From assembly GCA_020432765.1 (NCBI GenBank), contig JAGRDI010000025.1, positions 1 to 37,914 of the forward strand: 37,914 nt of DNA, read 5' to 3'. Source of the stretch: Anaerolineales bacterium. GTDB taxonomy: Bacteria > Chloroflexota > Anaerolineae > Promineifilales > Promineifilaceae. The notes below the pieces were generated by a model. That model was not told the DNA's origin. It ran no database searches and saw nothing but the letters and a program-made list of their open reading frames with translations. Position numbers and translations under genes: made by a program. Shown here in pieces: positions 44-37,831 of this stretch; position 1 is the first letter of the stretch; the number at the start of each line of letters is the position of its first letter.

Positions 44-1729
44 ATGAGTGACGACAAAAAAGTAATCTATTCGATGATGGGCGTTGGCAAAGTTGTACCG
101 CCCAATAAACAAATTTTACGCGATATTTCGCTTTCCTATTTTTATGGCGCGAAAATCGGCGTGCTGGGTCTCAATGGTGCCGGCAAAAGTACGCTTTTAC
201 GCATTATGGCAGGTGTAGACGAGGATTTCCTGGGTGAAACGGCCGTTTCACCCGGCTTCACAATCGGTTACCTTGAACAAGAACCCCAACTTGACGAAAG
301 CAAAACAGTGCGTGAAATCGTTGAAGAAGGCGCACAAGACGTGGTCGATGCATTAACCCAATTTGATACGCTAAACGCCAGGTTTGCCGAACCCATGACC
401 CCTGAAGAAATGGATGCATTGATTGAAAAACAAGGCAAACTGCAAGACAAGCTCGATCATATGAATGCCTGGGACCTTGACAGCCGCCTCGAATTAGCAA
501 TGGACGCCTTGCGCACGCCGCCGGGAGAGGTTCCCGTTTCCGTCCTATCCGGAGGTGAACGCAGACGTGTGGCATTGGTGCGCTTACTGCTCAAATCCCC
601 TGATATCTTGCTGCTCGATGAACCCACCAACCACCTTGACGCCGAATCGGTCGCCTGGCTGGAACGACACCTGCAAGGATATGCCGGCACCGTCATCGCC
701 GTTACCCACGATCGTTATTTCCTCGACAATGTCGCCGGTTGGATTCTAGAACTCGACCGCGGTTATGGCATCCCTTGGAAAGGGAACTATTCATCATGGC
801 TCGCACAAAAACAACAGCGTCTGGCCGAGGAGAAGAAACAAGAACAAGCGCGTATGCAAACGCTAGAACGCGAATTGGATTGGATCAACATGTCGCCCAA
901 AGGACAGCGTGCTAAATCCAAAGCACGTATTAAATCCTATAACAAGCTGCTGCAAGAAGGACGTGACAAATCCATCGACGATTTGGAAATCTACATTCCA
1001 CCAGGACACCGACTGGGCGATATCGTCATCGAAGCCAACCATATCAGCAAGAGTTATGGCGAAAATTTACTTTATGAAGATTTAAGCTTCAACTTACCTC
1101 CGGGTGCAATTCTAGGCATCATTGGTCCGAATGGTGCCGGCAAAACCACCTTATTCCGCATGATCGTCGGACAGGAAGAGCCAGATGCCGGCACATTGCA
1201 GGTTGGACAATCAGTTAAACTGGCCTATGTCGATCAAAGCCGCGATACGCTTGATGCAAATAAAACTGTTTGGCAAGAGATTTCAGATGGGGAAGACAAT
1301 TTGCAGTTAGGCACACGCAAGGTTAATTCAAGAGCGTATGTCGGCCGTTTCAATTTCAGCGGCTCTGACCAACAAAAGAAGGTCGGCATACTTTCTGGCG
1401 GCGAGCGTAACCGCGTCCATCTAGCCAAAATGCTCAAATCCGGTGCCAATTTGCTGCTGCTCGATGAGCCGACCAACGATCTAGACGTCAACACCCTGCG
1501 TGCTTTAGAGGAAGCTTTAGAGAATTTTGGCGGATCGGCCGTCATCATCTCGCATGATCGTTGGTTCCTGGATCGCGTGGCCACCCACATTTTGGCTTTT
1601 GAAGGTGATAGTCAGGGATTTTGGTATCCCGGCAATTACAGCGAATATGAGGAAGATCGCCGCCGTCGACTCGGGGCCATCGCCGACCGGCCGCATCGCA
1701 TCACCTACCGCAAATTGCGCCGCGACTAA
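44..1729 (+). CDS. ettA: ABC-F family ATPase, energy-dependent translational throttle EttA
   Basis: 561-aa ORF with two ABC cassettes and no TM domain. Walker A GLNGAGKST and GPNGAGKTT, signatures LSGGERRR and LSGGERNR. The N-terminus VIYSMMGVGKVVPPNKQILRDISLSYFYGAKIGVLGLNGAGKS is typical of EttA/YjjK. Confidence 0.93.
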   Translation: MSDDKKVIYSMMGVGKVVPPNKQILRDISLSYFYGAKIGVLGLNGAGKSTLLRIMAGVDEDFLGETAVSPGFTIGYLEQEPQLDESKTVREIVEEGAQDVVDALTQFDTLNARFAEPMTPEEMDALIEKQGKLQDKLDHMNAWDLDSRLELAMDALRTPPGEVPVSVLSGGERRRVALVRLLLKSPDILLLDEPTNHLDAESVAWLERHLQGYAGTVIAVTHDRYFLDNVAGWILELDRGYGIPWKGNYSSWLAQKQQRLAEEKKQEQARMQTLERELDWINMSPKGQRAKSKARIKSYNKLLQEGRDKSIDDLEIYIPPGHRLGDIVIEANHISKSYGENLLYEDLSFNLPPGAILGIIGPNGAGKTTLFRMIVGQEEPDAGTLQVGQSVKLAYVDQSRDTLDANKTVWQEISDGEDNLQLGTRKVNSRAYVGRFNFSGSDQQKKVGILSGGERNRVHLAKMLKSGANLLLLDEPTNDLDVNTLRALEEALENFGGSAVIISHDRWFLDRVATHILAFEGDSQGFWYPGNYSEYEEDRRRRLGAIADRPHRITYRKLRRD

Positions 1730-1889
1730 AACAAGTAAAGCCATGGCAGTGAAATCAAGCAACCCCTATCGCAAACAATTCCCTTTTAATCACTTTTGGC
1801 TTGTTTCTTGTCGGTAATGATATTTGGTTACGAAAAAAGGCTTCAACAAATACTTCGAGAAACTCAGCACAAGTTTAGGAAGGAACTAA

Positions 1890-2885
1890 TTGAGCGAAAA
1901 ACTTTATCCACTTTTATTTGAACCTGTATTGAAAGATTATATCTGGGGCGGACGCACTTTTGAACAACTCGGCCGCACATTGCCGGCAGAAGGTGTGATT
2001 GCGGAAAGCTGGGAAATCGCCGGACATGATGACGGCACGACACGGGTTGTTAACGGCCGTTTCGCCGACAAACTGCTCACAGAAGTCCACGCTGAATTAG
2101 GAGTAGACCTGATCGGCACAAGCAATGCCTGGGCACAAGATCGTGGCAAATTCCCCCTCCTGATCAAACTACTCGATGCCAACAAGCCGCTTTCCGTACA
2201 GGTACATCCTCAAGATGAATATGCACTGGCCAACGAAGGTAATGAGTTGGGCAAAACCGAAATGTGGGTTGTGCTGGACGCCAAACCAGGCGCTAAATTG
2301 CAATTAGGTGTGAAGGCAGGCACGACGGCAGCAGCCTTTAGGACAGGCATCGAGAACGGCCGTTTAGAACCCTATTTACATTACATCCCCGTGCAAGCAG
2401 GTGACCACGTATGTGTACCCGCCGGCACGCTGCACGCCATAATGGACGGCATCCTCATCGCCGAAATTCAACAAAACTCCAATACCACCTACCGTGTTTA
2501 TGATTGGAATCGTTTGGGTCACGACGGCCAGCCACGGCCGTTACATATCAACAAAGCATTGGATGTGATCAATTTTGAGCAAGTTGAACCCGCGATTTGC
2601 CCTGCTACGCTCATCAGCAACGAAAAGGGAGTACAACGCGAACTGCTGTGCCAAAATGAATACTTCGTCACTGAACGGGTCACTTTACAAGCGGGAGCCA
2701 CATTTGATGGCAATTGTGATGGCACGACGTTCGAAATTTGGGGTGTTCTTAACGGCGCAGTCACCATCAATGCACAAAAACTAGCGGCGGTTCAATTCAC
2801 GCTGCTGCCGGCTAAATTAGGGCTTTTTAGGGTGACGGCCGTAGACAAAACAACTTTGCTGCGCACATATGTCTCAGAACAATAA
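1890..2885 (+). CDS. manA: Class I mannose-6-phosphate isomerase (cupin fold)
   Basis: 331-aa ORF with a TTG start preceded by AGGAAGGA. It carries LYPLLFEPVLKDYIWGG, LSVQVHP, GKTEMW and PAGTLHA, which are typical of bacterial type I PMI. Confidence 0.85.
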   Translation: MSEKLYPLLFEPVLKDYIWGGRTFEQLGRTLPAEGVIAESWEIAGHDDGTTRVVNGRFADKLLTEVHAELGVDLIGTSNAWAQDRGKFPLLIKLLDANKPLSVQVHPQDEYALANEGNELGKTEMWVVLDAKPGAKLQLGVKAGTTAAAFRTGIENGRLEPYLHYIPVQAGDHVCVPAGTLHAIMDGILIAEIQQNSNTTYRVYDWNRLGHDGQPRPLHINKALDVINFEQVEPAICPATLISNEKGVQRELLCQNEYFVTERVTLQAGATFDGNCDGTTFEIWGVLNGAVTINAQKLAAVQFTLLPAKLGLFRVTAVDKTTLLRTYVSEQ

Positions 2886-2941
2886 TATGGGGATAGGTCA
2901 GAAACCCAACAGTTGATCGGATGCTTTTTTTGCGCGATTTA

Positions 2942-2970
2942 TGCCAATCGTCCAGTAAGAACGATTGGCA
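2942..2970. terminator. Perfect 10-bp hairpin between convergent manA and the FG-GAP gene (possible U-tract-poor terminator)
   Basis: TGCCAATCGT (2942-2951) pairs with ACGATTGGCA (2961-2970) around a 9-nt loop. No clear T-run follows on either strand. Confidence 0.35.
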
Positions 2971-2987
2971 AAATCAACTGAACGCTT

Positions 2988-5462
2988 TTATTGATGCACA
3001 ACCAACGGGAAATATATCTTATACATGCCTTGAGGTACAGGTGTTACCGTCGGTGTCACATTGGGTGCAGGTGTTGAAGTAACTGTGGGGACAGCCGTTG
3101 AAGTAACAGTGGGTGTAGGCGTCGGCTCAGTTGGACAATCCTGTGATAGATTTTCATATAACAGAACCTGGTTGTGCGTCCAACCAATAGAAATAATATC
3201 GAGATCACCATCATTATCAATATCGACCGTCTGCGCGCCATCATGATGTTCATCACCAGTATACACAGTATGTGAACGCCAAGAACTGCCGAAGCCATCC
3301 ACGTTTTCATAAACCAACATTTGAGCCGCTTCTGGGTTTTCAATGTTGTGTTCGCCAACAATGACATCTAAATCATTATCCCGATCCATATCAGCAACAT
3401 CCAGGCTCATTGCAGCAATATTAGGGGCAATAATATGTTCGGCCCAAGTATCGGTGGCAATCTGCGGCTGCGCATACCAGGCTAATTTGCCGGGCTGGTT
3501 GACCGGTTCATAACCAACGACAGCATCCAAACGGCCGTCTTGATTAACATCTGCCAATCTGTTGCGATCTGGACTTTCTGTAGTATTGAAAACCGTAAAG
3601 GCTGTCCAGGGACCAGAACTTTGTGCTTCTGGCGAGGCATCATTGCGCAACCAAACCGTACCTAATAACAAATCGATATCGCCATCCCGATCAATATCGG
3701 CAGCACTCAAATCTTCATTTTGAGTCGCAGCTGAGATCGATTGCCATGTCCAAGATGAGGCCTCTGGGTCGGAAGGCAGCGTAAGCATCTGCACACTTTG
3801 TTGTGTCGAATGATGCCACGAAAGCCCCACTTCAGTTGCCGCACCAGCTTGAAACGCAGCTGCTGCGGCACCTTGCAAGAAGGTACCATCACCACTGGTG
3901 ATATTGGTGAGAATCGTGAAATTCCCGCTGCCATCATTTTGTCCCCAGGCAAAATTGCTGTTATCAGAGGAACCTTCTCCCTGAGTACCCAAAATGTCGA
4001 TGTCACCATCTTGATCAAAGTCATACAACGCAGCCATATTATTCAGCGGTGTGCCAATTGTATGACGTATCCAATCGCCGCCAGAAATGCCCGGATTTTG
4101 ATACCACCAACCACCACTGACCACATCGGCCAGATCATCCCCATTCAAATCTGCCGACAAGACAAAAATCGCACGCCACGGCCGTTCTGCATCGATGACA
4201 TGACGCTGCCATTGGTCAAGCCCTGTATCACAGGTAATCAATTCATTGATCCAAATATCCAGGCGCGGGGTTTCCCAATTAAATGGTTTGCCAAGAATAT
4301 CCAGGTCGCCATCCCCATCCAGGTCTCCGAGACGCGATTCATGGTTACCATAGCCGGTAGCGACATCGCTGACAGTGAAATTACCATTACCATCACCCAA
4401 TAAAATCCAGAAACCAGCATCAGGATTTTCGTTATCAAGACGCATTTCGGCTAAGAAAATATCCAGGTTGCCATCCAAATCGACATCACCTAGCCGCAGC
4501 GAATGACCGTGATCAATATCAAAATCGAATAAATCATGGCTAATCCAACTGCTGCCATCCCATTCATACCATTTATACGGACCACTCGCATCACCCGGAC
4601 CAAAAACAATCTCAGGCAGGCCACCAGCGATCAATTGTCCGACAGCAACACGCGCAAAGCGTTGACTGTCGTCAATAATATGGGCAGTGTAATTTGTGCC
4701 GCCGGTATGTTCGAACCAACGTCCGCCACCAATGATGTCGATTTTGTTGTCACCATTTAGGTCTGCCTGGGCGAACCCTTCCAACTCAGGTGTACCGCTC
4801 CAAGTGTAAATGGGGGTGTATGACCAGGGCTGTGTTGTGTGTGGGTCTGCCGGAATTTCAGCCAAGAAAAGGGTGAATGCCTCCTGATTCCAGAAAACGA
4901 GTTCAGCCTGGTTATCGCCATCAAAGTCCCCAAACATCTGATCATGATGTTTGAGTGCGCCACTATCTTTTATCAGACGACGGGTCCAATTAATATCGGG
5001 GTCAAATGTTGGATACGGATTTTCCCACCACCAAACCTGGTTCGAACTGCCGTCACCTCCCATGACAATGTCCAGATCACCATCGTCATCAATGTCGTAG
5101 TAATCACCGCCAGCCTCAAGGGTGAGTGGATGAGATTCGATGGTGTACCTTTGCCAGCCCGTTTCATTGCGTTGGTACCAAACGAGGGTAGGGTCGGGAA
5201 AATAACGGTTGCCGATGACAAAATCCTGCAAGCCATCTTTGTCAATGTCCAGAATGAGGGTAGAAGATTGTTGTACACTGGTACCCGGTAGGGGTAGATC
5301 ACCGTTTGCCGTTGAAAGGTGGGTCCATGTAAGGGTTGTGGGGTGGTTAGCTTGAGGAGATACGGCCGTTTCTAAAGCCGAACCTCCTCCTGAAAAACTT
5401 GTTACAAAAACAAGCAATATAATACTTAATCCAATCAGCAATAATTTCATAAAATCGTTCAT
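2988..5462 (-). CDS. Secreted FG-GAP/VCBS-repeat (integrin-alpha-like beta-propeller) protein with a C-terminal Pro/Thr linker and short hydrophobic tail
   Basis: 824-aa ORF with AAGGTG 6 nt upstream of the ATG and an N-terminal hydrophobic signal/anchor (MKLLLIGLSIILLVFVTSF). It has many D-x-D/N-x-D-G-x-x-D Ca-binding style repeats (DIDKDGLQD, DIDDDGDLD, DFDGDNQAE, DLNGDNKID, DVDLDGNLD, DLDGDGDLD, DFDQDGDID, DIDRDGDID, DVNQDGRLD, DMDRDNDLD, DIDNDGDLD). The C-terminus is a PT-rich stretch followed by MYKIYFPLVVHQ. Confidence 0.85.
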   Translation of the reverse strand: MNDFMKLLLIGLSIILLVFVTSFSGGGSALETAVSPQANHPTTLTWTHLSTANGDLPLPGTSVQQSSTLILDIDKDGLQDFVIGNRYFPDPTLVWYQRNETGWQRYTIESHPLTLEAGGDYYDIDDDGDLDIVMGGDGSSNQVWWWENPYPTFDPDINWTRRLIKDSGALKHHDQMFGDFDGDNQAELVFWNQEAFTLFLAEIPADPHTTQPWSYTPIYTWSGTPELEGFAQADLNGDNKIDIIGGGRWFEHTGGTNYTAHIIDDSQRFARVAVGQLIAGGLPEIVFGPGDASGPYKWYEWDGSSWISHDLFDFDIDHGHSLRLGDVDLDGNLDIFLAEMRLDNENPDAGFWILLGDGNGNFTVSDVATGYGNHESRLGDLDGDGDLDILGKPFNWETPRLDIWINELITCDTGLDQWQRHVIDAERPWRAIFVLSADLNGDDLADVVSGGWWYQNPGISGGDWIRHTIGTPLNNMAALYDFDQDGDIDILGTQGEGSSDNSNFAWGQNDGSGNFTILTNITSGDGTFLQGAAAAAFQAGAATEVGLSWHHSTQQSVQMLTLPSDPEASSWTWQSISAATQNEDLSAADIDRDGDIDLLLGTVWLRNDASPEAQSSGPWTAFTVFNTTESPDRNRLADVNQDGRLDAVVGYEPVNQPGKLAWYAQPQIATDTWAEHIIAPNIAAMSLDVADMDRDNDLDVIVGEHNIENPEAAQMLVYENVDGFGSSWRSHTVYTGDEHHDGAQTVDIDNDGDLDIISIGWTHNQVLLYENLSQDCPTEPTPTPTVTSTAVPTVTSTPAPNVTPTVTPVPQGMYKIYFPLVVHQ

Positions 5463-5611: not shown

Positions 5612-5995
5612 ATGAGCAACACATTTCATTTTCCTGTGCAAATCTATTATGAAGATACCGATTTTTCGGGTCTTGTTTACCATGCGAACTATCTAAAATT
5701 TTTTGAACGTGCCCGTGAGCATGCCATCGGTCGTGAAAAATTACTGCATTTATGGGATGCCGGCATCGGATTTGTCGTCTATAAAATTGAGTTGACTTAT
5801 AGTGAAGGAGCTAAATTTGGCGACATCCTTGACATTCGTTCAACTTTTGAACTTGACGGCAGCTATCGATTAAATTTTCACCAAGAGGCATGGCTGCCAG
5901 ATGGTAAAAAAGCAGCTACCAAAGGATTAATCCAACTGGTCTGTATTGATGGCAACGGCCGTCTTGTTCCCATCCCTACTGACAGCCTACCTTAG
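5612..5995 (+). CDS. Hotdog-fold acyl-CoA thioesterase, YbgC/4-hydroxybenzoyl-CoA thioesterase family
   Basis: 127 aa. The N-terminus FHFPVQIYYEDTDFSGLVYHANYLKFFERAR carries the catalytic Asp (DTD) and the family-typical YHANYL motif. Confidence 0.85.
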   Translation: MSNTFHFPVQIYYEDTDFSGLVYHANYLKFFERAREHAIGREKLLHLWDAGIGFVVYKIELTYSEGAKFGDILDIRSTFELDGSYRLNFHQEAWLPDGKKAATKGLIQLVCIDGNGRLVPIPTDSLP

Positions 5996-6812: not shown

Positions 6813-8093
6813 TCAATCAGGCCAACCTACTTCTAGCGCATGGCACATGCCACGACCAAGCCAACCATACTCAGTACCAGGTGCCGGGTTTACAATTTTC
6901 ATCACAACCGGTTCGGCGCCGGGACCACTATAATACAACACTTGTACATAAACAGATGGATAAGCAATATCGATACCTCTAATCCAACCACTGTCCTGCC
7001 AGCCATCGAGTGCATACCACTCAGCATAGACAGCACCACCAACCTCTTGTACAACGTAGAGGCCACGCATCGCTTCATCACCGGTTATGTCAAAGTTAAT
7101 ACGTAAACATGCATCTTCGCGCGGTGGCTTCGCTGTTGGCGACGGTGTTGCCGTTATCACCGGTGTCGGAGGACTTTGCGTCACAGTTGGCGGCATGTCC
7201 GTTGGTGTTATTGTTGGCGGTGGCACTTCCGTTGGCGTTTCTGTGGGCGGCACACCTATGGGTGTTTCTGTCGGCGGCACATCCGTTGGTGTCGCTGTCG
7301 GCCCTTCCGGGGTATCCGTTGGCGTCGCTGTCGGTCCTTCCGGTGTATCTGTTGGCGTTGCTGTCGGACCTTCCGGCGTATCTGTTGGCGTTGCTGTCGG
7401 TCCTTCCGGCGTATCTGTCGCGGTTGGGGTTGCCGTGGGTCCTTCTTCTGTTGGTGTAGCCGTTGGTGCTTCCGGCGTATCAGTTGGTGTTTCTGTTGGC
7501 GGTACGGCCGTTTCTGTGGCTGTAACAGTCGGTGTCGGTTGTACAATCTCAGGACATATCAGGTCTATTAAGCCGACGCTATCTTCAGCGAAAAAGACCA
7601 AATCGCCACTTTCTGGTGCGATGAACTCACCATAAACAACCATACCCTGATCAACAACTTGTACAGGAACATCGTTTATATACCAAGTATTGCGGCGATC
7701 GTCTATGTCGTCATCAATTTGCACATATTCAACGAGGCAACCAGCTTCGATATCACCAAAATCGATCGCCCCATCATATATAGTATATCCTAAAATTTCA
7801 ACATCGTTGATGCTCCAAACACGTTCACCAGCCGTTGCTTCATAGGTTGGAGGTGGTTCGATGGTATATTCAATCCAACCAGCATGTTTAACTAAAAATT
7901 CATAGCCGGGTTCAACAGTAAACGTGCCAGGGCCTTCGCCAAGCCATGTGATATCAGGCAATACATCAACCTGATGCGGAACTTCAAGTGTCAAATCGCC
8001 TACCACATCTTGTGATTGGAATGTGTTTACCCAACCAGCAATGGCTAGCATAATGATTCCAAATGCAAAAATGCCCCCTAATCTTTTAATCAT
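6813..8093 (-). CDS. Membrane-anchored or secreted hypothetical protein with a long Pro/Thr-rich tandem-repeat linker between two unassigned domains
   Basis: 426 aa with a TAGGAGG SD and an N-terminal TM/signal (GGIFAFGIIMLAIAGWV). The central ~140 aa is a PT-rich region with GPTATPTDTPE repeats. The Trp/Tyr-rich C-terminal ~100 aa shows no motif I recognise. Confidence 0.7.
   Translation of the reverse strand: MIKRLGGIFAFGIIMLAIAGWVNTFQSQDVVGDLTLEVPHQVDVLPDITWLGEGPGTFTVEPGYEFLVKHAGWIEYTIEPPPTYEATAGERVWSINDVEILGYTIYDGAIDFGDIEAGCLVEYVQIDDDIDDRRNTWYINDVPVQVVDQGMVVYGEFIAPESGDLVFFAEDSVGLIDLICPEIVQPTPTVTATETAVPPTETPTDTPEAPTATPTEEGPTATPTATDTPEGPTATPTDTPEGPTATPTDTPEGPTATPTDTPEGPTATPTDVPPTETPIGVPPTETPTEVPPPTITPTDMPPTVTQSPPTPVITATPSPTAKPPREDACLRINFDITGDEAMRGLYVVQEVGGAVYAEWYALDGWQDSGWIRGIDIAYPSVYVQVLYYSGPGAEPVVMKIVNPAPGTEYGWLGRGMCHALEVGWPD
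7291..7422. repeat. Four tandem copies of a 33-bp unit inside the PT-linker coding region
   Basis: Units at 7291-7323, 7324-7356, 7357-7389 and 7390-7422 follow the pattern GT(C/T)GCTGTCGG(N)CCTTCCGG(N)GTATC(C/T)GTTGGC and differ at only a few positions. On the minus strand they encode repeats of GPTATPTDTPE. Confidence 0.9.
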
Positions 8094-8876: not shown

Positions 8877-8964
<88 letters not shown>

Positions 8965-9002
8965 TCGTAGGTTTCTCTGCTGTAAATTGAGCATCTTTTT
9001 CT

Positions 9003-9092
9003 GGGGAGGTGCCAGAGTGGACGATTGGGGCCGCCTGCTAAGCGGTTAACGGTCTTAAAAGCCGTTCAAGGGTTCGAATCCCTTCCTCCCCG
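9003..9092 (+). tRNA. tRNA-Ser (anticodon GCT)
   Basis: Acceptor GGGGAGG/CCTCCCC, anticodon loop CTGCTAA, long variable arm AACGGTCTTAAAAGCCGTT and T-loop GGTTCGAATCC. Confidence 0.92.
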
Positions 9093-9167
9093 CCTTTATC
9101 GCCTAACAAATTAAAAAAACTTGCTACAGTTGGTAAGTTAGTATAAGGTTATAGGGTCATTATATAT

Positions 9168-9241
9168 GCGCCCGTAGCTCAGTGGATTAGAGCATTCGGC
9201 TACGAACCGAAGGGTCGGGGGTTCGACTCCCTCCGGGCGTA
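9168..9241 (+). tRNA. tRNA-Arg (anticodon ACG)
   Basis: GCGCCCGTAGCTCAGTGGATTAGAGC D-arm, anticodon arm TTCGG-CTACGAA-CCGAA and T-loop GGTTCGACTCC. Total length is 74 nt. Confidence 0.92.
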
Positions 9242-9261
9242 CTATAATCAACTTTGAAACG

Positions 9262-9353: not shown

Positions 9354-9695
9354 ATGAAAACACCAGCAGGAAAAGAATGCCGTTTTTATTACCAGGATTT
9401 TTTCCGCGGCCGCTCCGAACAAGAATGCCGCTTGATCAAAAACAATCCCGCATCTGCTGAATGGAAAGTCAAAGATTGTACGGATTGTCCAGTGCCAGAT
9501 ATTTTGCTTGCCAACAGTAGCCCCGACCTCGTCTTAGAAGCAACTATCAAAAAGGGGTTCATGGGTTTAAACCGCCATGTACAGGTACACGCTTCATGCA
9601 GCCGTCATTTGATTGAAGTACCTAAACCTGAGGTTGGTTGTTCAAAATGTGCCTCAGAAAAACCAGGGCTGAAAGAGTTATTTGGTGACGAATGA
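9354..9695 (+). CDS. Small Cys-rich hypothetical protein (possible metal-binding)
   Basis: 113 aa with an AAGGA SD 8 nt upstream. It has seven Cys residues, including CTDC and CSKC pairs. Its stop overlaps the next start (ATGA at 9692-9695). Confidence 0.55.
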   Translation: MKTPAGKECRFYYQDFFRGRSEQECRLIKNNPASAEWKVKDCTDCPVPDILLANSSPDLVLEATIKKGFMGLNRHVQVHASCSRHLIEVPKPEVGCSKCASEKPGLKELFGDE

Positions 9696-10423
9696 TCGAA
9701 GCGATTCTTTTTGATTTAGACGATACTTTATTGGGGAATGACATTGATAAGTTTATTCCCCATTATTTTGGATTATTGGGTCAATATGCAGCAGAACGGA
9801 TTGAACCACAGGAGTTCTTTCAGATTCTGCAGATCGGTACAGATGCGATGATTAGTAATCAGGACACGGCCGTTTCCAACCGCGATGTATTTTGGTCAAC
9901 ATTCGAACACCTCAGCAACCAAGACCCCGCAGAGATGGAATCATTTTTCAACATCTTTTATGCAACCCAATTTAACCAACTAGAAAAGTTTACCACCTGT
10001 CTGCCAACAGCCAATCCATTGATCAAGGCCTGCTTTGCCAAAGGTCTAAAAGTCGTCATAGCGACAAATCCCCTTTTTCCCCGTTCTGCAATAGAAGCAC
10101 GGTTACGCTGGGCACAAATACCGATAACTGAATTCGATTACAATTTGATAACAACCTACACAAACATGCATGCCGCCAAACCAAATCAGTCCTATTATCT
10201 AGAAATCCTCGACAAAATCGATTGTGTACTTGAAAAAGCATTAATGGTTGGTGACGACTGGGCCAACGATATCGAGCCTGCCACCGCCATTGGCTTGCAT
10301 ACCTACGGAATTGAGTGGCCGCAAAAAGCGAATCAAGATTTATCTCTACCGACTGCCAGCGGAACTTTAGCGGCATTATACGCACGAGTTCAGGCCGGTT
10401 GGCTTGAATCATTAGGCGTTTAA
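9692..10423 (+). CDS. HAD-superfamily hydrolase (subfamily IA-like)
   Basis: 243 aa with motif I ILFDLDDTLL, motif II VIATN and motif IV VGDDWANDI. Confidence 0.8.
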   Translation: MIEAILFDLDDTLLGNDIDKFIPHYFGLLGQYAAERIEPQEFFQILQIGTDAMISNQDTAVSNRDVFWSTFEHLSNQDPAEMESFFNIFYATQFNQLEKFTTCLPTANPLIKACFAKGLKVVIATNPLFPRSAIEARLRWAQIPITEFDYNLITTYTNMHAAKPNQSYYLEILDKIDCVLEKALMVGDDWANDIEPATAIGLHTYGIEWPQKANQDLSLPTASGTLAALYARVQAGWLESLGV

Positions 10424-10430: not shown

Positions 10431-10901
10431 ATGCAATTTCCCGCCCCCCGCGCTGAATTATTGATGGCCTTGGCAACATTCGCACAAACGCTGCAAGATA
10501 CCCTCACACAGCTAGATTTAGATTGGCGGCAACGGCCGTTACCAGATGAATGGTCACTCACCGAAGTGCTGTGTCATCTACGGGATGTGGAGCGTGAAGT
10601 CCACCATATCCGCTTTCGCGCCATTTTAACGCAGGATGTGCCATTTATGCCCGGCGCAGTCACCGATGAATGGGTGCAGCTGCGCAATTATGCTGCACAA
10701 GATGGCCCAGAAGCATTAAACAGCTTTCTCATCGCCCGCCAGAAAAACATTCTGCTTTTGACCGAATTGGAGGAAGAAGCATGGCAGCGCTACGGCCGTC
10801 ACGCCTTTTTCGGTCCTACGACTCTACACGAACTGGTTGATTTCATGACCAAACATGATGCGGCTCACTTGGAACAAATTCAGAAATTGATGGCAGCATA
10901 G
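10431..10901 (+). CDS. DinB-family (DinB_2) four-helix-bundle protein
   Basis: 156 aa. The His triad context is LCHLRDVEREVH ... HDAAHLEQI, and WSLTEVLCHL is typical of the DinB superfamily. Confidence 0.7.
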   Translation: MQFPAPRAELLMALATFAQTLQDTLTQLDLDWRQRPLPDEWSLTEVLCHLRDVEREVHHIRFRAILTQDVPFMPGAVTDEWVQLRNYAAQDGPEALNSFLIARQKNILLLTELEEEAWQRYGRHAFFGPTTLHELVDFMTKHDAAHLEQIQKLMAA

Positions 10902-11656: not shown

Positions 11657-12682
11657 TTAGCTGCCGATCTTTTTTCCTAGTACATTGATTTGGGTTGTAA
11701 CGGCCGTTCCTCCCGGTGGCAAAGCGTCAAAAACAAATGGGTAGACAGCCCCAGGAGCCAATTCAATCATCAAATCTTGCGTTTGGAACCCGGTTAATAT
11801 CCCATTTTGATCATAAAAAGTGATGACTAAATGTAATGCGGATGTACTATCTGCACCGCTATTCTGAATTTGACCCGAACCTTGTACACGGCCGTTTTTA
11901 GCCGTCCATTCTAAATCTGTTATTGTCAAATCCAAATAATATGAACCTGACCCATTCACGCTAAGTCCCTCGACAACCGTGACAACCGGGCTAACATTTT
12001 CTGGTAGTTCAGCAGCTAACACTGCAAATACGGCCGTTTCTTGTGTAGGAACAACGGCCATTTCCAACCAAGTCGTATAACTCTGTATAGTTTGACCATT
12101 GGGTGTCTTCAAATCAACGAGTAACGCAACATCTTCAACAGCCAACTCCCCCACATTTTTAACCGCTCCTACGATCCAGGTCGTGCCAACTGGATTAGGA
12201 TAAAGCTGGACATCCACGACTTCTAATTGGAATGGAACGGCCGTGCCGACAACTTCAATATCCAACAAGCCCGGCTCAATGGTTGGTAACAGTAATGCTT
12301 GTCCCACTAATAGAATATTAGGATCCAACCCAGGATTGAGCGTCGTGATTGTCTCTATTGTTGTGCCTTGACGCGCCGCAATGGCAGCAACTGTGTCACC
12401 CTCTTGAACCATATAGATCAAAGGCGTTGGTGATACAGTCACTGTGGGAAACGGAGTTGCTGTGGCAGCTTGTTGAAAGTTCGACACAGTCGGCGGTGGT
12501 GGGGTTGTCAATTCAATTCCAATTTGTAATGTCGCTGTTGGCGGCAAAGTTGGTGGTAATACTGTTTGCGTATTATCAGGAGGAGATTGACAGCCATTTA
12601 AACCAATAATCAGTGCCACTATCGTAAAAATTTGAGTGATGCTTAACCCATCGACACGCATATTTTTTTTGCTTCTCACCAT
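11657..12682 (-). CDS. LysM-domain secreted lipoprotein-like protein
   Basis: 341 aa. It has a signal with a lipobox-like LNGC, a PT-rich linker, a LysM domain (YMVQEGDTVAAIAARQGTTIETITTLNPGLDPNILLVGQALLLP) and a beta-rich C-terminal region. Its stop lies 1 nt from the plsC start, so the two are probably co-transcribed. Confidence 0.75.
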   Translation of the reverse strand: MVRSKKNMRVDGLSITQIFTIVALIIGLNGCQSPPDNTQTVLPPTLPPTATLQIGIELTTPPPPTVSNFQQAATATPFPTVTVSPTPLIYMVQEGDTVAAIAARQGTTIETITTLNPGLDPNILLVGQALLLPTIEPGLLDIEVVGTAVPFQLEVVDVQLYPNPVGTTWIVGAVKNVGELAVEDVALLVDLKTPNGQTIQSYTTWLEMAVVPTQETAVFAVLAAELPENVSPVVTVVEGLSVNGSGSYYLDLTITDLEWTAKNGRVQGSGQIQNSGADSTSALHLVITFYDQNGILTGFQTQDLMIELAPGAVYPFVFDALPPGGTAVTTQINVLGKKIGS

Positions 12683-15160: not shown

Positions 15161-15250
15161 TTTTTAACTTACTACGAAGACCCCAAGGATTTGCAGCAGC
15201 ATAATGCCAAATCAATACAAACCAAACCCTTAGGGACTAAAAGGAAAAAT

Positions 15251-25945: not shown

Positions 25946-25960
25946 GATATTTGTCCTAAC

Positions 25961-25986
25961 GAAAAAGGCGAGCACAAAGACTCGCC
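25961..25986 (-). terminator. Rho-independent terminator after rpsI
   Basis: The minus strand reads GGCGAG-TCTTTGTG-CTCGCC followed by TTTTTC, 34 nt downstream of the rpsI stop. The stem is only 6 bp. Confidence 0.5.
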
Positions 25987-28088: not shown

Positions 28089-28176
28089 CGGTATTCCTCG
28101 TTCTATCTTTATCTACGATCCGGAGCGGTGTTTAATCCATGCCACGCCGGTTATTGTTGTTCAGCAACGGCCGTGT

Positions 28177-29229: not shown

Positions 29230-29868
29230 TTATCGGGAGTAATACTCAACGATCAGCTGCTCGTTCAGTGAAACGTCGATATCTTCACGAGCAGGCAGAT
29301 GCAACACATTCACTGTTAAGTCGGCTGCACTCGCAGTCAACCAACGAGGTACACGTCTGTCATCCATTTCTTGCCGCAAGACCTTGAAATATGTACGCCG
29401 CGAGCTTTCCGAACGCACCGAAACAATATCCCCAGGTGAAACTAACGCCGAGGGAACATCAGTTTTACGGCCGTTCAACATTACATGCCCGTGTGATACC
29501 AACTGACGTGCTTGCGCACGCGAACTGGCCATGCCAGCGCGGTATACCACATTATCAAGACGACGTTCCAACAAAGTCAACAAATTTGTACCAGTCAACC
29601 CAACTTGTTGTGATGCGCGGCTGAAATAACGACTAAACTGGCGTTCCATAATGCCATAAATGCGCCGTGCCTTTTGCTTTTCACGCAACTGTAACAAATA
29701 GTCGGATGCACGATTTCGCCGGAACTGTTTCTCGCGTCCATGTTGTCCCGGTGGGTATGACCGCCGTTCAAAAGAACATTTCGGAGTCATACACCGCGAA
29801 CCCTTCAAAAAAAGCTTTTCGCCTTCACGGCGACAAAGCTTACATACAGGACCTGTATATCTTGCCAA
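29230..29868 (-). CDS. rpsD: 30S ribosomal protein S4
   Basis: 212 aa with a TTG start after GGAGG. It has [23 protein letters not shown] and an S4 RNA-binding domain ([27 protein letters not shown]). Confidence 0.95.
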
Positions 29869-31037: not shown

Positions 31038-31610
31038 TCACTCCGCCTGCTGGACGACCTTGATCAATTCTTGCTGTACCTGTTCAACCGGCTGTTGGCC
31101 ATTTACTTCCACAAACAAGCCCCTTTCTTGGTAATAGTCCATTAAAGGTTTTGTCTGAGCCTCATAAATGTCCATACGGGTCCGAATAGTGCCTTCATTA
31201 TCGTCTGCACGGCCTTCAATTTCAGCGCGTTTCAATAGACGTTCTACCAATACATCCTGATTTACATGAATCGACGGGACGACACTAATGCGTCCACCTA
31301 TTTCTGCTAACAGGTTATCAAGGGCAACTGCTTGTACCAGATTACGCGGAAAGCCATCAAGAATAGCCCCGTTTTTGCAATCAGTTTGTGACAACCGGTC
31401 TTTTACCATGGCCACTGTGACTTCGTCGGGAACAAGTTGTCCCTTATCCATATAAGTATTTGCAAGCTTACCAAGGTCCGTCTGGTTCTTCAGATTATAT
31501 CTGAATAAGTCACCAGTGGAAATCTGGGGTAAACCCAACGCAGATTGCAACAGTTTTGCCTGTGTGCCTTTGCCGGCACCTGGTGCACCCATCAAAATCA
31601 CATACTTCAT
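31038..31610 (-). CDS. adk: Adenylate kinase (short-lid type)
   Basis: 190 aa with the P-loop GAPGAGKGTQA, ISTGDLFR and GFPR. There is no Cys4 lid. The start overlaps the secY stop by 1 nt (TGATG). Confidence 0.93.
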   Translation of the reverse strand: MKYVILMGAPGAGKGTQAKLLQSALGLPQISTGDLFRYNLKNQTDLGKLANTYMDKGQLVPDEVTVAMVKDRLSQTDCKNGAILDGFPRNLVQAVALDNLLAEIGGRISVVPSIHVNQDVLVERLLKRAEIEGRADDNEGTIRTRMDIYEAQTKPLMDYYQERGLFVEVNGQQPVEQVQQELIKVVQQAE

Positions 31611-32989
31611 CAGTCAATAAACCCTTCGTAATGACGCATAAGCAGTTGAGATTCTAGCTGACGCATGGTATCAATGACTACACCAACAACGATGATCAAG
31701 CCCGCACCAGTAACAACATATGCGCTTTGTTGAAGGCTAGGAATCCGCAATATTGCGCCGATAAACGCCATAATGCCTGGAGTAATAGCGATCAATCCCA
31801 AAAACACAGCGCCGACAAGTGTGATGCGACGTACCACCGAAGTAATGTAAGCTTCAGTGCGTTTACCCGGACGAATGCCTGGAATAAAACCGCCCTGACG
31901 CTGTAATGTCTGTGGTATGTTTTGCTGTTTCACCATCACATCAGTATAGAAGAAGGTGAATCCCACAACTAACAAGAAATAGAATCCCCAATACAAGAAG
32001 AACGAAAGCGGTGCCGTTCCTGGATCTTGTACGGAACCAAAACTACTAATGCTGCGTGCGATTTGGTTAAGTATATTACCATCTGTTGACAAATCACCAA
32101 CAAAGAATTGGGCAATGAGGGGTGGAAATGTCAAAATAGCCTGTGCAAAGATAATCGGGATCATACCAGCAGTGTTTACCTTCAAGGGTACGTATGTACT
32201 CTGTCCCTGGTAAACTTTTCGACCACGCACACGACGGCCGTATTGTACTGGTATTCTGCGCTGTCCTTCCTGAATCACGACAATAACAAATACTGTAAAA
32301 ACGGTCAGGACAATAAAAGCAAAAATAGTGAATATCCGCGAGGTCGTATCTGGAATCGCAAACAAGCTAGCCGTATTCGGCAAAATCCGCGAGACGATAC
32401 CACCGAAGATAATCAAAGAAATACCTTGTCCAATCCCGTCTTCCGTAATTAATTCGCCAACCCAAATAGCGAACATCGTACCACCTACCATGGCAACCAC
32501 AGTAGTTAAGGTTGATAAAATCTGATCCGGTTGCGTACCAAAATTAGGCAAAATTTGTTCTAAGCCACCTGGTAAACTGAAACCTATCAAGCGAATCTGA
32601 CCAATAGCCTGCAAAAAGGCTAATGGAACCGTTATATAATAGGTAATCCGGTTAATTTTATTGCGACCTGTCTCACCCTCAGATGCCAACTCTTCCAACT
32701 GTGGAATAATCGGCGTTAACAATTGGATGATAATAGATGCTGTGATGTAAGGATACACACCCATGGCCATCACAGAAAAGTTGCGCACAGCCCCACCAGA
32801 AAGCAGGTCAAGAAAATTGACCACAGCGTTGCCGCTATCCTGGGCGGTGAAGGCAAGCCAAGCAGTTAAGTTGACGCCAGGCACCGGAATATTCGCCACA
32901 AGGCGGTAGATCACCAGCATAAAAATGGTGAACAATATACGCCGTCGCAAATCTGGCAAAGCAAATGCTGCACGAATTGACTCAATCAT
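31610..32989 (-). CDS. secY: Preprotein translocase subunit SecY
   Basis: 459 aa with 10 TM helices. Motifs include LRRRILFTIFMLVIYRL, GVYPYITASIIIQLL and GGFIPGIRPGKRT. Confidence 0.95.
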   Translation of the reverse strand: MIESIRAAFALPDLRRRILFTIFMLVIYRLVANIPVPGVNLTAWLAFTAQDSGNAVVNFLDLLSGGAVRNFSVMAMGVYPYITASIIIQLLTPIIPQLEELASEGETGRNKINRITYYITVPLAFLQAIGQIRLIGFSLPGGLEQILPNFGTQPDQILSTLTTVVAMVGGTMFAIWVGELITEDGIGQGISLIIFGGIVSRILPNTASLFAIPDTTSRIFTIFAFIVLTVFTVFVIVVIQEGQRRIPVQYGRRVRGRKVYQGQSTYVPLKVNTAGMIPIIFAQAILTFPPLIAQFFVGDLSTDGNILNQIARSISSFGSVQDPGTAPLSFFLYWGFYFLLVVGFTFFYTDVMVKQQNIPQTLQRQGGFIPGIRPGKRTEAYITSVVRRITLVGAVFLGLIAITPGIMAFIGAILRIPSLQQSAYVVTGAGLIIVVGVVIDTMRQLESQLLMRHYEGFID

Positions 32990-33056
32990 TACTCTTTTCC
33001 CGTTCTAGAGCCGGCAAACCAGAGAATCACTACAGTCTGCCCATAAGCTCATGCTT

Positions 33057-33512: not shown

Positions 33513-33513
33513 C

Positions 33514-33696
33514 TTACTCTACCTCTTCAACAGTCACCAAATGACTGACCTTAAAAATCATGCCACGGATTACGGCCGTATCATCATGCTCCACAACTTG
33601 ATTCAGTTTACGGAACCCCAACGCCTTAATCGTTGCTTTTTGTTTCTCGTTATAACCAATTGTACTCTTCGAGTATTTAATGCGTAACTTAGCCAT
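33514..33696 (-). CDS. rpmD: 50S ribosomal protein L30
   Basis: The start is reassigned to the ATG at 33696 ([33 protein letters not shown]...). It overlaps the rpsE stop by 1 nt (TAATG). Confidence 0.9.
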
Positions 33697-34223
33697 TAGC
33701 CTCGACTCCAAAACGGCGTCACTTCGGCTTTGTCTTTGCCGCGATCTGCCGCGATTTGTTGGTAATCCTTCAACTGGCGTAAGCCGTCCATTGTTGCCAT
33801 CATGACATTAAGTGCATTTTGACTGCCCAAAGATTTTGAAAGAATATCTCTGTATCCAGCAGCCTCAATAACCGCACGAACGCCACCACCAGCGATAACG
33901 CCCGTTCCTGGCGATGCCGGCTTAAGCAGTACTTTAGCAGCACTGTAACGTCCAACAACTTGATGTGGTACCGTAGTACCAAACAAAGAAACTGGCTCCA
34001 TCGCTTTCCGCGCAGCTTCAATCGCCTTGCGAATCGCATCCGGCACAGAGCGAGCCTTACCAGTAGCAACACCAACACTACCTTTATTATCACCAACAAC
34101 CACAGTCACACGGAAAGCAAACCGGCGACCACCCTTAACTACTTTGGCAACACGTGTGATATCGATAATACGCTCATCGAGCTCATCACGTTGGTCACGA
34201 AAATTTTGTCGTCTTTGACCCAT
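33696..34223 (-). CDS. rpsE: 30S ribosomal protein S5
   Basis: 175 aa with [22 protein letters not shown] and [18 protein letters not shown]. Confidence 0.95.
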
Positions 34224-34238
34224 TACTCTCTCCTAGCC

Positions 34239-34601: not shown

Positions 34602-34613
34602 TTCATTTTACCT

Positions 34614-35156: not shown

Positions 35157-35169
35157 TTCAGACCTCCGC

Positions 35170-35577: not shown

Positions 35578-35589
35578 AATTATGCACCT

Positions 35590-35772
35590 TTACCAGCTTG
35601 ATTTTACAACACCGGGGACATTTCCCATCAGTGCCTGTTCACGAAAACAAATGCGACACAAACCAAAACGACGTATGTATCCACGGGGACGGCCGCATAC
35701 TTTGCAACGGTTGCGCACACGTACTCTATATTTCCGCTTCGTTTCACGTGCGATCATGGACTTTTTCGCCAT
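35590..35772 (-). CDS. rpsN: 30S ribosomal protein S14, zinc-binding type Z
   Basis: The start is reassigned to the ATG at 35772 after GAGGAG. It is 60 aa: [45 protein letters not shown]... with CxxC...CxxC. Confidence 0.93.
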
Positions 35773-35783
35773 AACTATCTCCT

Positions 35784-36338: not shown

Positions 36339-36425
36339 TTTTACCTCCAGGTTAAGTGGCAGGAATGCGATGGTTGGACATATCCAAACCATTCTGGGCT
36401 TCCTGGCTCACCCTTGGTTCTTATA

Positions 36426-36752
36426 TTAATCTAAATCAGCACCGCTTTTTTTAGCGTAGCGTATGCGACGGCCGTTTTCATCAAAACGAATGCCAATCCG
36501 AGTTAAAACATTGTTATCTTCGGGATCAACCAACATGACGTTTGACACGCTGAAAGGCGCTTCAAATTCAATGATACCGCCTTGAGCTTGTGATCGACCA
36601 CCCGTTTGCTGTGGTTTTTGATGCTTCTTAACGATATTCACACCCGAAACAACAACACGTCCTTTTGCCGGCATCACGCGCTGAACTTTACCACGAACGC
36701 CCTTATAGTTTCCGGCGATGACTTCAACTTCGTCATTTACTTTAATACGCAT
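36426..36752 (-). CDS. rplX: 50S ribosomal protein L24
   Basis: 108 aa with a KOW motif: MRIKVNDEVEVIAGNYKGVRGKV. Confidence 0.95.
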   Translation of the reverse strand: MRIKVNDEVEVIAGNYKGVRGKVQRVMPAKGRVVVSGVNIVKKHQKPQQTGGRSQAQGGIIEFEAPFSVSNVMLVDPEDNNVLTRIGIRFDENGRRIRYAKKSGADLD

Positions 36753-36761
36753 GATTACCTC

Positions 36762-37133
36762 TTACAATGCTTCCGGTGCAAGTGATAGAATACGGCCAAA
36801 TCCCTTCTGGCGTAATTCACGTGCAACTGGGCCAAAGATACGGGTGCCAACCGGATTATTATTGGTAGCATCCAATATTACAGCAGCATTATCATCAAAT
36901 CGGATATAGCTGCCATCATCGCGCTTGTATTCTTTCTTCGTGCGCACAATAACAGCCTTTACAATAGTGCTTTTTTTAACGTTTGAATTTGGCGCAGCTT
37001 TTTTGACAGTGGCGGTAACAACATCGCCTACAGACCCGTAACGGCGTTTCGAACCACCCATTACCTGAATGACCAAAATCTCACGTGCACCAGAATTATC
37101 GGCAATATTTAGACGACTTTCTTTCTGAATCAT
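36762..37133 (-). CDS. rplN: 50S ribosomal protein L14
   Basis: 123 aa beginning [28 protein letters not shown]. Confidence 0.95.
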
Positions 37134-37143
37134 GATGAGCCTC

Positions 37144-37395
37144 TTATTTTGCCCGGTCTAAAATTTCGGTAACGACAAATCGTTTTTGTCGACTGATGGG
37201 TTTAGACTCGATAATTTGCACACGATCACCCACGTGGCATTCATTGTTTTCATCATGCGCCTTATACTTCTTTGTACGGCGCATCACTTTACCATAAATC
37301 GGATGACGTTGGGTAGAAGCTACAGTAACGACGACGGTTTTATCCATTTTGTCACCAGTAACGATACCAACTAAACGTTTACGTTGCTCTCTCAT
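37144..37395 (-). CDS. rpsQ: 30S ribosomal protein S17
   Basis: 83 aa containing [21 protein letters not shown]....[22 protein letters not shown]. Confidence 0.95.
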
Positions 37396-37402
37396 CTCTC
37401 AC

Positions 37403-37831
37403 CTACCCTGCAATCTCGTAACTCGTGACCATCTGCGGTTTTGCTTTTGCGACCCGAGATTTGCGCGAGCGCGGCTGCTTTTTATTCAAATCTACCAAAG
37501 CGGTAGCCAGAGCGCTGCCGCTGTCATCGCTAAAGCGAACTTGCCAGGCACCTTCTTCATAAATGAAATGAGTATTAGCCTTCCATTCATTATTTGCCAA
37601 TGCTGAAGCAATTTCTGGTTGGGCAACGGCCGTTTCTGTGGCAAGTTGGCGCATTTTCAAAACAGTCTCAAGTTGAGCAATCTCGCGACGCACAATTCTG
37701 AGTCTGGCATAGTTATCTAGCTGAGCAGTGGCTTTTTGGAACCGCAAATTGAACATCTCTTCGCGTGCATTCTCCAGCAGCTCATCCAGTTTATCATCAC
37801 TCATTTCACGCAATTCAACAATATTAGCCAT
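37403..37831 (-). CDS. rpmC: 50S ribosomal protein L29 with an unusual ~78-aa C-terminal extension
   Basis: The first ~64 aa are canonical L29 ([53 protein letters not shown]). The frame stays open for 78 more codons, to 7 nt before the rpsQ start. The start overlaps the rplP stop by 1 nt. Confidence 0.85.

Follow-up and report, generated by a model that had tools for sequence, protein, structure and literature searches.

The window, as we call the 37,914-nucleotide contig stretch analysed here (JAGRDI010000025.1, from a Promineifilaceae bacterium of the phylum Chloroflexota), has an ordinary gene content. Its genes, annotated with Pfam and NCBIfam profiles, include those for an ABC-F ATPase, a phosphomannose isomerase, a histidine kinase, a UDG-superfamily protein, an arginase and a yabN-type protein, together with trmB, three tRNAs and a cluster of ribosomal-protein genes from rpsI to rpmC that also holds secY, adk and rpoA. 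Running through them is ACGGCCGT, a perfect 8-bp palindrome that recurs about once per kb. The original prediction for this DNA held that the octamer behaves like the highly iterated palindrome (HIP) of cyanobacteria, HIP1, under a different word, and every one of the 47 coordinates it gave matches an exact copy. A sequence-specific bias at the level of DNA creates and preserves this palindrome, on chromosome and phage alike.

Copies of ACGGCCGT in the window

The 47 copies compare with an expectation of 0.56, and with a maximum of 3 among 100 dinucleotide-preserving shuffles, which bears out the claim that the word lies far above chance. When the octamers of the window are ranked, ACGGCCGT stands first and those ranked next all overlap it. 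The excess over a Markov expectation likewise holds at orders 1 to 3, which give 0.5–1.4 copies (0.81 at second order), but at order 6, the maximal order, the expectation rises to 42 and the ratio comes near 1. The order-6 test carries no information on enrichment, since the 7-mers from which its expectation is built derive from ACGGCCGT itself. All it shows is that, once the core is fixed, the base on one side is nearly independent of the base on the other; it does not count as evidence against enrichment.

The hexamer core CGGCCG occurs 65 times, and 47 of these cores carry the A...T flanks, exactly as had been estimated by hand. In 16 copies (34%) the palindrome extends to AACGGCCGTT, close to the predicted third, and the one-mismatch relatives ACGGCCGC, GCGGCCGT, ACGGCCGA and TCGGCCGT are present in 4, 1, 3 and 3 copies, respectively. 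The HIP1 word itself, GCGATCGC, was said not to be enriched and indeed occurs a single time, with CGATCG at 5 copies against roughly 9 expected.

Copies follow one another at a mean distance of 813 bp with near-random spacing (coefficient of variation 0.84 versus 0.97 in the null, p 0.15), the trend towards evenness being weak and non-significant. The ribosomal-protein operon region is poorest in the palindrome (0.5 per kb, compared with 1.9 per kb at 9.3–26 kb), and a contig of the same organism that adds 10 kb upstream of the window contributes 17 further copies. The contexts of the copies are unique, the commonest 12-mer containing ACGGCCGT occurring six times. A dispersed repeat (such as a repetitive extragenic palindrome, REP, or a miniature inverted-repeat transposable element, MITE) or a tandem repeat was considered and rejected, as no longer unit surrounds the octamer and flank preferences are weak.

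All copies except the one at 28167 had been placed inside coding sequences, and this holds for 46 of the 47, on both coding strands, when the copy at 33572 is counted in the small rpmD open reading frame (ORF). All three codon phases are used, with 21 copies encoding TAV, 16 [NYD]GR and 9 xRP[FLSYW], and the four examples first pointed out in manA are correct. Shuffling synonymous codons within genes, which keeps the protein sequence and codon usage of each gene, leaves 3.3 copies (s.d. 1.7, maximum 9 in 500), and shuffling codon order leaves 0.56, against 45 observed; both shuffles used 43 ORFs, rpmD not among them, and hence refer to 45 copies rather than 46. The enrichment thus survives both forms of shuffling.

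Specifically, the palindrome occupies 45 of the 58 places in the window where the peptide permits it (20 of 23 TAV, 16 of 21 [NYHD]GR and 9 of 14 xRP[FLSYCW]). The asparagine codon of NGR is AAC in 12 of 12 cases, although AAT is commoner in the window (277 versus 146), and the valine codon of TAV is GTT or GTA in 20 of 20. The tripeptides are themselves in excess, with 23 TAV against 4.4 and 12 NGR against 2.1 expected from composition (4–6-fold).

A second palindromic octamer, TGCCGGCA, is present in 9 copies where 1.1 are expected (positions 178, 682, 1135, 1186, 1981, 5758, 26490, 31571 and 36666), a number that none of 100 shuffles reaches. Three of these copies encode the P-loop GAGK, which is found in adenylate kinase as well as in the ABC-F ATPase, so selection on the peptide may account for some of the surplus. 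Many other 6-bp palindromes are scarce: GGGCCC, CCCGGG, CCTAGG, ACTAGT and CTATAG all have a count of 0 in the window, and GGCGCC (3 versus 12), GCGCGC (3 versus 11) and GGATCC (1 versus 7) fall below expectation. This avoidance is stronger still in several of the related loci described below (for example, L026, L035 and L042) and suggests a rich and changing restriction-modification repertoire in the family.

Among neighbouring features, the tRNA cluster at 8877–9242 (+; Ser-TGA, Ser-GCT and Arg-ACG) has no copy of ACGGCCGT. The peptidase M28 domain is split across the overlapping ORFs 15191–16309 and 16258–16644 (+), which cover profile positions 1–109 and 137–191; the split is a frameshift, a pseudogene or an assembly error. 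The UDG-superfamily gene (18446–19111, −), which bears four copies of the palindrome (Table 1), is family 4-like and scores below the NCBIfam cut-offs (69.9 versus 125 bits). It could encode a divergent UDG-type base-excision enzyme relevant to the repair of cytosine deamination, and nothing ties this enzyme to ACGGCCGT. The gene call for ribosomal protein L29 (37403–37831, −) has 142 residues, roughly double the normal length, and recurs unchanged in four independent metagenome contigs.

Table 1 Exact copies of ACGGCCGT in the window. The octamer is palindromic and no strand is assigned to a copy; strands are those of the genes. The last column gives the number of word-rich relatives (defined in the next section) in which the site is exact.
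Position	Codon phase (peptide)	Gene or region	Gene coordinates, strand	Exact in relatives
239–246	0 (TAV)	ABC-F ATPase	44–1729, +	
2053–2060	1 (NGR)	Phosphomannose isomerase (manA)	1890–2885, +	
2356–2363	1 (NGR)	Phosphomannose isomerase	1890–2885, +	
2534–2541	2 (PRPL)	Phosphomannose isomerase	1890–2885, +	
2835–2842	0 (TAV)	Phosphomannose isomerase	1890–2885, +	
3531–3538	1 (DGR)	FG-GAP repeat protein	2988–5462, −	
4178–4185	2 (ERPW)	FG-GAP repeat protein	2988–5462, −	
5362–5369	0 (TAV)	FG-GAP repeat protein	2988–5462, −	
5955–5962	1 (NGR)	Thioesterase	5612–5995, +	
7504–7511	0 (TAV)	Hypothetical	6813–8093, −	
9866–9873	0 (TAV)	HAD hydrolase	9692–10423, +	
10532–10539	2 (QRPL)	DinB_2	10431–10901, +	
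10792–10799	1 (YGR)	DinB_2	10431–10901, +	
11700–11707	0 (TAV)	LysM protein	11657–12682, −	
11888–11895	1 (NGR)	LysM protein	11657–12682, −	
12030–12037	0 (TAV)	LysM protein	11657–12682, −	
12237–12244	0 (TAV)	LysM protein	11657–12682, −	
13013–13020	0 (TAV)	GAF/PAS histidine kinase	12716–15160, +	
13663–13670	2 (QRPY)	GAF/PAS histidine kinase	12716–15160, +	
14097–14104	1 (NGR)	GAF/PAS histidine kinase	12716–15160, +	
14567–14574	0 (TAV)	GAF/PAS histidine kinase	12716–15160, +	
15075–15082	1 (NGR)	GAF/PAS histidine kinase	12716–15160, +	
15702–15709	1 (YGR)	Peptidase M28	15191–16309, +	
16755–16762	0 (TAV)	FmdE/zinc-finger	16734–17366, +	
17296–17303	1 (NGR)	FmdE/zinc-finger	16734–17366, +	
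17990–17997	1 (NGR)	Class-I SAM methyltransferase (small-molecule type, not a DNA methylase)	17711–18421, −	
18581–18588	1 (NGR)	UDG superfamily	18446–19111, −	
18681–18688	0 (TAV)	UDG superfamily	18446–19111, −	
18882–18889	0 (TAV)	UDG superfamily	18446–19111, −	
18976–18983	2 (KRPF)	UDG superfamily	18446–19111, −	
19676–19683	2 (GRPL)	Hydrolase/AMP-binding	19134–21686, −	
20239–20246	0 (TAV)	Hydrolase/AMP-binding	19134–21686, −	
20743–20750	0 (TAV)	Hydrolase/AMP-binding	19134–21686, −	
20852–20859	2 (ERPW)	Hydrolase/AMP-binding	19134–21686, −	
21596–21603	2 (QRPS)	Hydrolase/AMP-binding	19134–21686, −	
22544–22551	2 (KRPS)	trmB	21693–22715, −	
23066–23073	0 (TAV)	Arginase	22853–23749, +	
24155–24162	0 (TAV)	Hypothetical	23824–24465, −	
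25413–25420	0 (TAV)	yabN/mazG-type	24470–25975, −	37/45
25566–25573	0 (TAV)	yabN/mazG-type	24470–25975, −	35/46
25904–25911	1 (NGR)	yabN/mazG-type	24470–25975, −	43/47
28167–28174		rpoA–rplQ spacer, 2 nt past the rpoA stop codon; sole non-coding copy		
29467–29474	1 (NGR)	rpsD	29230–29868, −	48/51
32234–32241	1 (YGR)	secY	31610–32989, −	39/52
33572–33579	0 (TAV)	Small ORF, rpmD position	33514–33711, −	
36468–36475	1 (NGR)	Ribosomal-operon ORF	36426–36752, −	
37626–37633	0 (TAV)	L29	37403–37831, −	

Conservation, loss and replacement among relatives and phages

We compared the window with 80 loci of about 21 kb, centred on the ribosomal-protein operon and collected around SecY orthologues from one genome per GTDB species (SecY identity 97% to 71%). 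All are from Chloroflexota and carry the labels Promineifilaceae, "Ardenticatenaceae", Leptofilum or Promineifilum. In most of them ACGGCCGT is the top palindromic octamer, and 49 of the 80 reach at least 5 copies per 10 kb (up to 14.6). Pooled with the window, these 49 word-rich loci contain 930 copies in 1.03 Mb where 24 are expected. Among the hexamer palindromes, CGGCCG alone is strongly over-represented (1938 versus 614), and most others are avoided, with observed-to-expected ratios of 0.08 for GGGCCC, 0.08 for CCTAGG, 0.19 for AGGCCT and 0.26 for CCGCGG. One-base variants of the octamer have ratios of 1.8–5.5 when the change is at an outer position and 0.4–1.5 when it is at an inner one. 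Over-represented amid palindrome avoidance, and with variants of the word frequent only at the outer bases, the core resembles the recognition site of a Type II enzyme. A weak symmetrical preference extends into the flanks: position −1 is A in 60% of sites and position +9 is T in 64%, while −3 is G in 47% and +11 is C in 51%.

Sites are also conserved in position. Between word-rich genomes at 80–85% nucleotide identity, ACGGCCGT is exactly conserved in 84% of cases, compared with 26% for all octamers and 22% for GC-matched ones; at 65–75% identity the figure is 54% against 8.6%, with control octamers at 7–9%. The pairs of genomes behind these values are phylogenetically non-independent, and the effect is large. 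Individual sites of the window are exact in 35–48 of 45–52 word-rich relatives. Where related genomes differ by a single base, the outer bases dominate and no clean deamination pattern emerges.

Furthermore, the palindrome leaves its imprint on proteins. The tripeptide TAV has an observed-to-expected ratio of 4.0 in word-rich genomes and 0.65 in word-poor relatives for the same gene set. In word-poor orthologues the peptide at ACGGCCGT sites differs in 67% of cases, the same as at random positions, so that changes of both kinds, synonymous and non-synonymous, give rise to sites, a point the original prediction had left to an alignment of orthologues. Pooled density is 0.83 per kb in non-ORF and 0.90 per kb in ORF DNA. 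The bias acts on DNA, overrides codon preference and alters protein sequence, in keeping with the earlier argument that no single peptide motif explains the enrichment; an origin in a peptide motif or in codon usage is rejected by the synonymous and codon-order shuffles and by the equal non-ORF density.

On a neighbour-joining tree of the relatives (19 proteins, 3,480 positions), ACGGCCGT is present in almost all deep branches. It has been lost or has decayed at least four times: in the high-GC clade of Promineifilum proper, in L047, in L076 and L079, and in L003, L004, L005 and L010, the last four being word-poor sisters of the window's own subclade. The L076 locus, which has no ACGGCCGT, is dominated instead by TGCCGGCA (19 copies versus 0.8 expected, in all three phases), and CGGCCG is reduced to 3 copies versus 16 expected. 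Ancestral sites in the loss lineages carry too many substitutions for the decay of 5-methylcytosine (m5C) to be read from them. The palindrome is clade-wide and ancient in the family, and it has been repeatedly lost and once retargeted. Word-rich genomes include NZ_OZ244997.1, JADJXK010000002.1 and JACKBQ010000001.1; the accessions of word-poor L003 and L010 are CAVTPP010000003.1 and CAWEDV010000001.1, and that of word-switched L076 is CAYQYJ010000021.1.

Flank preferences around CGGCCG are lineage-specific, with ACGGCCGC found 22 times in L061, ACGGCCGA 14 times in L071, and CGGCCGTC in L013 and L072, a pattern reminiscent of dialects. Unrelated octamers are repeated 10–22 times in L020, L031, L061, L065, L041 and L043 (for example, AGGAATGA in L020, AGTGACGA in L031, AATTAGGA in L065 and CCCTGGCC in L041); tandem arrays, CRISPR-like arrays or repeat proteins are their probable source.

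Scans of IMG/VR yielded 29 word-dense loci (252 kb) with up to 3–3.7 copies per kb, again in unique contexts and all three codon phases, and with genes for ParA, an anti-repressor, RadC, an FtsK-like protein, a DnaC-like loader and PAPS reductase. A phage contig with terminase and portal genes has 41 copies in 21.8 kb and a related phage has 16 in 15.3 kb; densities are 1–1.9 per kb on bona fide phage contigs and up to 3.7 on predicted viral contigs. Word-bearing phage or mobile contigs include L348 (JGI 3300036045 Ga0310689_0000441), L349, L106/L162, L146/L217 and L089. We do not claim that phage density exceeds that of the host, since away from the ribosomal operons the hosts themselves reach some 2 copies per kb or more. 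Since phages carry ACGGCCGT with its CGGCCG core freely, CGGCCG is unlikely to be a restriction target there. The palindrome could serve as a signature for binning and for assigning the phages and plasmids of this family to their hosts.

A metagenome scan for triple words returned mostly short contigs and added about ten word-dense coding contigs of 58–65% GC with 2–3.8 copies per kb. Many of the short contigs bear an unrelated satellite-like degenerate repeat, GTACACGGCCGT, as seen on the non-coding contigs L283, L308, L307, L281, L262, L267 and L346, at 13–18 copies of ACGGCCGT per kb. This satellite is a different phenomenon that shares the octamer by coincidence.

A candidate repair bias and competing explanations

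As alternative mechanisms the original prediction had named an m5C methyltransferase with very-short-patch-type repair, or a function in recombination, in the nucleoid or in uptake. We propose that a sequence-specific process acts on double-stranded DNA in the cell, rather than on RNA or protein, and would favour mutations that create the palindrome and disfavour those that destroy it. Its preferred target would be a CGGCCG core flanked by A/T on either side, with a weaker preference for A/T at the next base outward. Under such a process the palindrome would accumulate to about 1–2 per kb in any DNA replicating in these cells, phages included; it would override codon preference, shift amino-acid usage and decay once the driver is lost. 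The driver would most probably be a resident cytosine methyltransferase of the CGGCCG (EagI-site) type, whose mark may bias a mismatch-correction or strand-choice step, and ACGGCCGT would then be largely a product of molecular drive and less of selection on each site. We put this repair bias forward, with the CGGCCG core as the modified site, tentatively, as quite possible and short of probable.

The pattern of losses, with the switch to TGCCGGCA, fits the loss or retargeting of a sequence-specific protein, and carriage by phages fits a process that acts on any DNA replicating in the cell. In cyanobacteria, each over-represented palindrome coincides with a methyltransferase able to modify it, and a methyl-directed mismatch-repair ratchet has been proposed for these HIPs (Elhai 2015, PMC4390886). 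The Nanomotif supplement records methylation specific to CGGCCG, both 5mC and 4mC, in environmental genome bins; it gives no taxonomy for them and never lists the motif as ACGGCCGT.

Other results weigh against a methylation-linked repair bias. Using motif regular expressions and phmmer (with M.HhaI, M.HaeIII, Vsr and Dam as queries) on the 17,224 ORFs of all fetched DNA, we found no DNA methyltransferase, Vsr or nicking endonuclease in the window, the 10 kb upstream or the 80 related loci. Transition neighbours of CGGCCG are not depleted, with ratios of 1.18 for CGGCTG, 0.85 for CGGTCG and 1.07 for TGGCCG. Elhai's G-meC rule leaves the A...T outer bases unexplained, and the graded palindromic preference over about 14 bp suggests the footprint of a DNA-binding dimer more than a 6-bp methylase site. 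Moreover, Xu et al. (PMC5861425) read similar conservation of HIP1 as selection and not as biased repair.

The only matches of the enzyme search are phage-borne, namely a C5 methylase (L142 and L348) and a ParB-N6_N4 methylase (L207). The C5 cytosine methylase, of 592–616 amino acids, is encoded by word-dense phages (L142, 1906–3753, −, equivalent to L348, 10001–11779), and its variable region contains about six tandem repeats of about 35 residues (VDEALATQTT...LVxPPF) reminiscent of multispecific phage methylases. Hint/intein domains are present in some of its relatives (P0008, P0087 and P0123). We rejected this family as a marker of word-bearing DNA: it is huge (7,520 hits) and spans several phyla, and one Chloroflexi-labelled member sits on a contig with no copy of ACGGCCGT.

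Rather than a by-product of repair, ACGGCCGT may be a selected 'self' tag that is read by a recombination or DNA-uptake machinery, such that tagged DNA is better taken up, protected from degradation or recombined. This is the main rival, and a role now put forward for HIP1; we regard it as possible and somewhat doubtful. A density of about 1 per kb in all frames, with knock-on effects on tripeptide usage, and the strong conservation of site positions would suit such a tag, as would the dialect-like flanks (ACGGCCGC in L061, ACGGCCGA in L071 and a different word in L076). HIP1 provides a precedent, as it enhances transformation in a way that depends on methylation, with Chi-like action possible (Kamoku and Nielsen 2024; Rodriguez-Cruz et al. 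2026). However, known uptake sequences and Chi are asymmetric, whereas ACGGCCGT is a perfect palindrome with a Type II-like core, and accumulation driven by uptake alone would not be expected to load phage genomes. That phages bear the palindrome at host-like density is easier to reconcile with a tag that protects DNA or promotes its recombination than with a drive by uptake alone. It is improbable that the octamer is instead the binding site of an abundant dimeric nucleoid or chromosome-organizing protein, kept by selection for chromosome structure, even though the graded preference beyond the octamer (positions −1, +9, −3 and +11), the positional conservation of copies and the nucleoid role that Xu et al. 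proposed for HIP1 would all accord with it. The near-random spacing, seen in 38 kb only, does not favour a structural array, and the fact that several lineages have lost the palindrome completely, with nothing in its place, speaks against a structural function that is essential. Nor is any site-specific nucleoid protein known to us to have exact 8-mers by the thousand in a genome.

A by-product of classical very-short-patch repair, in which a Vsr-type endonuclease acts with an m5C methylase to restore T:G to C:G in the CGGCCG context, is very unlikely. It has a precedent in CCWGG of Escherichia coli, with Dcm and Vsr, and the core contains GGCC, a common m5C target, but the transition neighbours are not depleted, and the classical T:G to C:G bias of Vsr is therefore not visible. 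Indeed, neighbour ratios of 0.85–1.18 recur in the decayed lineages, and transitions are no lower than transversion neighbours in word-rich or decayed genomes. The 40–60-fold enrichment lies far above the known Vsr effect, and the fetched DNA, about 3.4 Mb that covers host genomes in part, yielded no ORF resembling Vsr. Finally, the possibility that the excess is artefactual, produced by peptide motifs, by codon usage, by a dispersed mobile repeat or by the assembly, can be virtually dismissed: TAV and [NYD]GR do make up 37 of the 47 sites, but it is refuted by the 3.3 and 0.56 copies that the shuffles leave of 45, by the use of three phases and both coding strands with equal non-ORF density, by unique contexts in which the top 12-mer recurs only six times, and by identical sites in dozens of independently assembled genomes.

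Comparison with known iterated words

The origin and function of HIP1, known for about 30 years, are debated, with biased repair, nucleoid structure and a transformation signal among the proposals. We conclude that ACGGCCGT is a HIP-type word of Promineifilaceae, as it shows every HIP feature that can be tested, and that it is not HIP1 itself, word and phylum both being different. The original prediction knew of no such HIP, and we found no description of ACGGCCGT or CGGCCG as a hyperabundant palindrome in the literature searched (subscription journals lie outside this coverage). A second HIP system with a different word, in an unrelated phylum, makes the phenomenon more general than cyanobacteria, and here it alters which codons and tripeptides are used by bacteria that abound in wastewater and soil. 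The four or more losses and one switch form an independent data set for asking which methyltransferases, repair nucleases and competence genes co-vary with the word. It is conceivable, if doubtful, that HIP-type words are a general, independently evolved, genome-wide 'self' mark and that this Chloroflexota family and its phages keep ACGGCCGT by selection. If so, a system of recombination, uptake or defence would read the mark as a tag, one that can be lost or retargeted to TGCCGGCA, and the repeated losses would be a natural experiment that could expose its reader and writer proteins by phylogenetic profiling.

The DNA uptake sequence (DUS) of Neisseria and the uptake signal sequence (USS) of Pasteurellaceae resemble ACGGCCGT in their density of about 1 per kb, their location in genes and in all frames, their effects on peptide usage and the conservation of sites at the level of the family, with outer bases that vary by lineage as dialects. 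They are, however, asymmetric 9–12-mers read by a competence protein and often stand as inverted pairs at terminators, whereas ACGGCCGT is a perfect palindrome, abundant on phages, with 1 of its 47 window copies intergenic. In E. coli, CCWGG is made more frequent by very-short-patch repair through Dcm and Vsr. This too is a short palindromic methylase site made commoner by a repair bias; the effect there is modest and accompanied by depletion of T-containing neighbours, in contrast to the 40–60-fold enrichment without depletion seen here.

Closer parallels are found among the alternate HIPs of cyanobacteria, which include GGCGCC (Calothrix PCC 7103), rCCGGy (Oscillatoria PCC 10802), GGGATCCC and TCGATCGA (Elhai 2015). 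As in those cases, a lineage without the usual word, L076, bears another GC-rich palindrome at similar density, and the GCCGGC core of its TGCCGGCA is one form of the rCCGGy of Oscillatoria PCC 10802. The cyanobacterial cases each pair with a matching methyltransferase.

HIP1 differs from ACGGCCGT in its core, CGATCG, with an embedded GATC that CGGCCG lacks, and in its outer bases, which are G/C in HIP1 and A/T here, so that Elhai's G-meC rule is inapplicable. The host phylum is Chloroflexota (Promineifilaceae) rather than cyanobacteria, and cognate CGATCG- and GATC-specific methyltransferases are known for HIP1, whereas none was found here in the window and the 80 loci. The HIP class is further marked by a periodicity of 10–90 kb along the chromosome; over the 38 kb of the window, copies are spaced nearly at random. 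In other respects the behaviour is that of HIP1, as the original prediction had recognized. Both words are GC-rich 8-bp palindromes in which an outer base pair encloses a Type II-like core of 6 bp; both occur at about 0.5–2.5 per kb, with tens-fold over-representation under a second-order Markov model (47 versus 0.81 in the window; 16–317-fold for HIP1), and copies in all three reading frames and in non-coding DNA. Also in common are the conservation of sites between genomes far above control octamers, the concentration of one-base variants at the first and last base (Elhai, PMC4390886), a palindromic extension, here AACGGCCGTT, and the sporadic loss of the word with its replacement by other palindromes.

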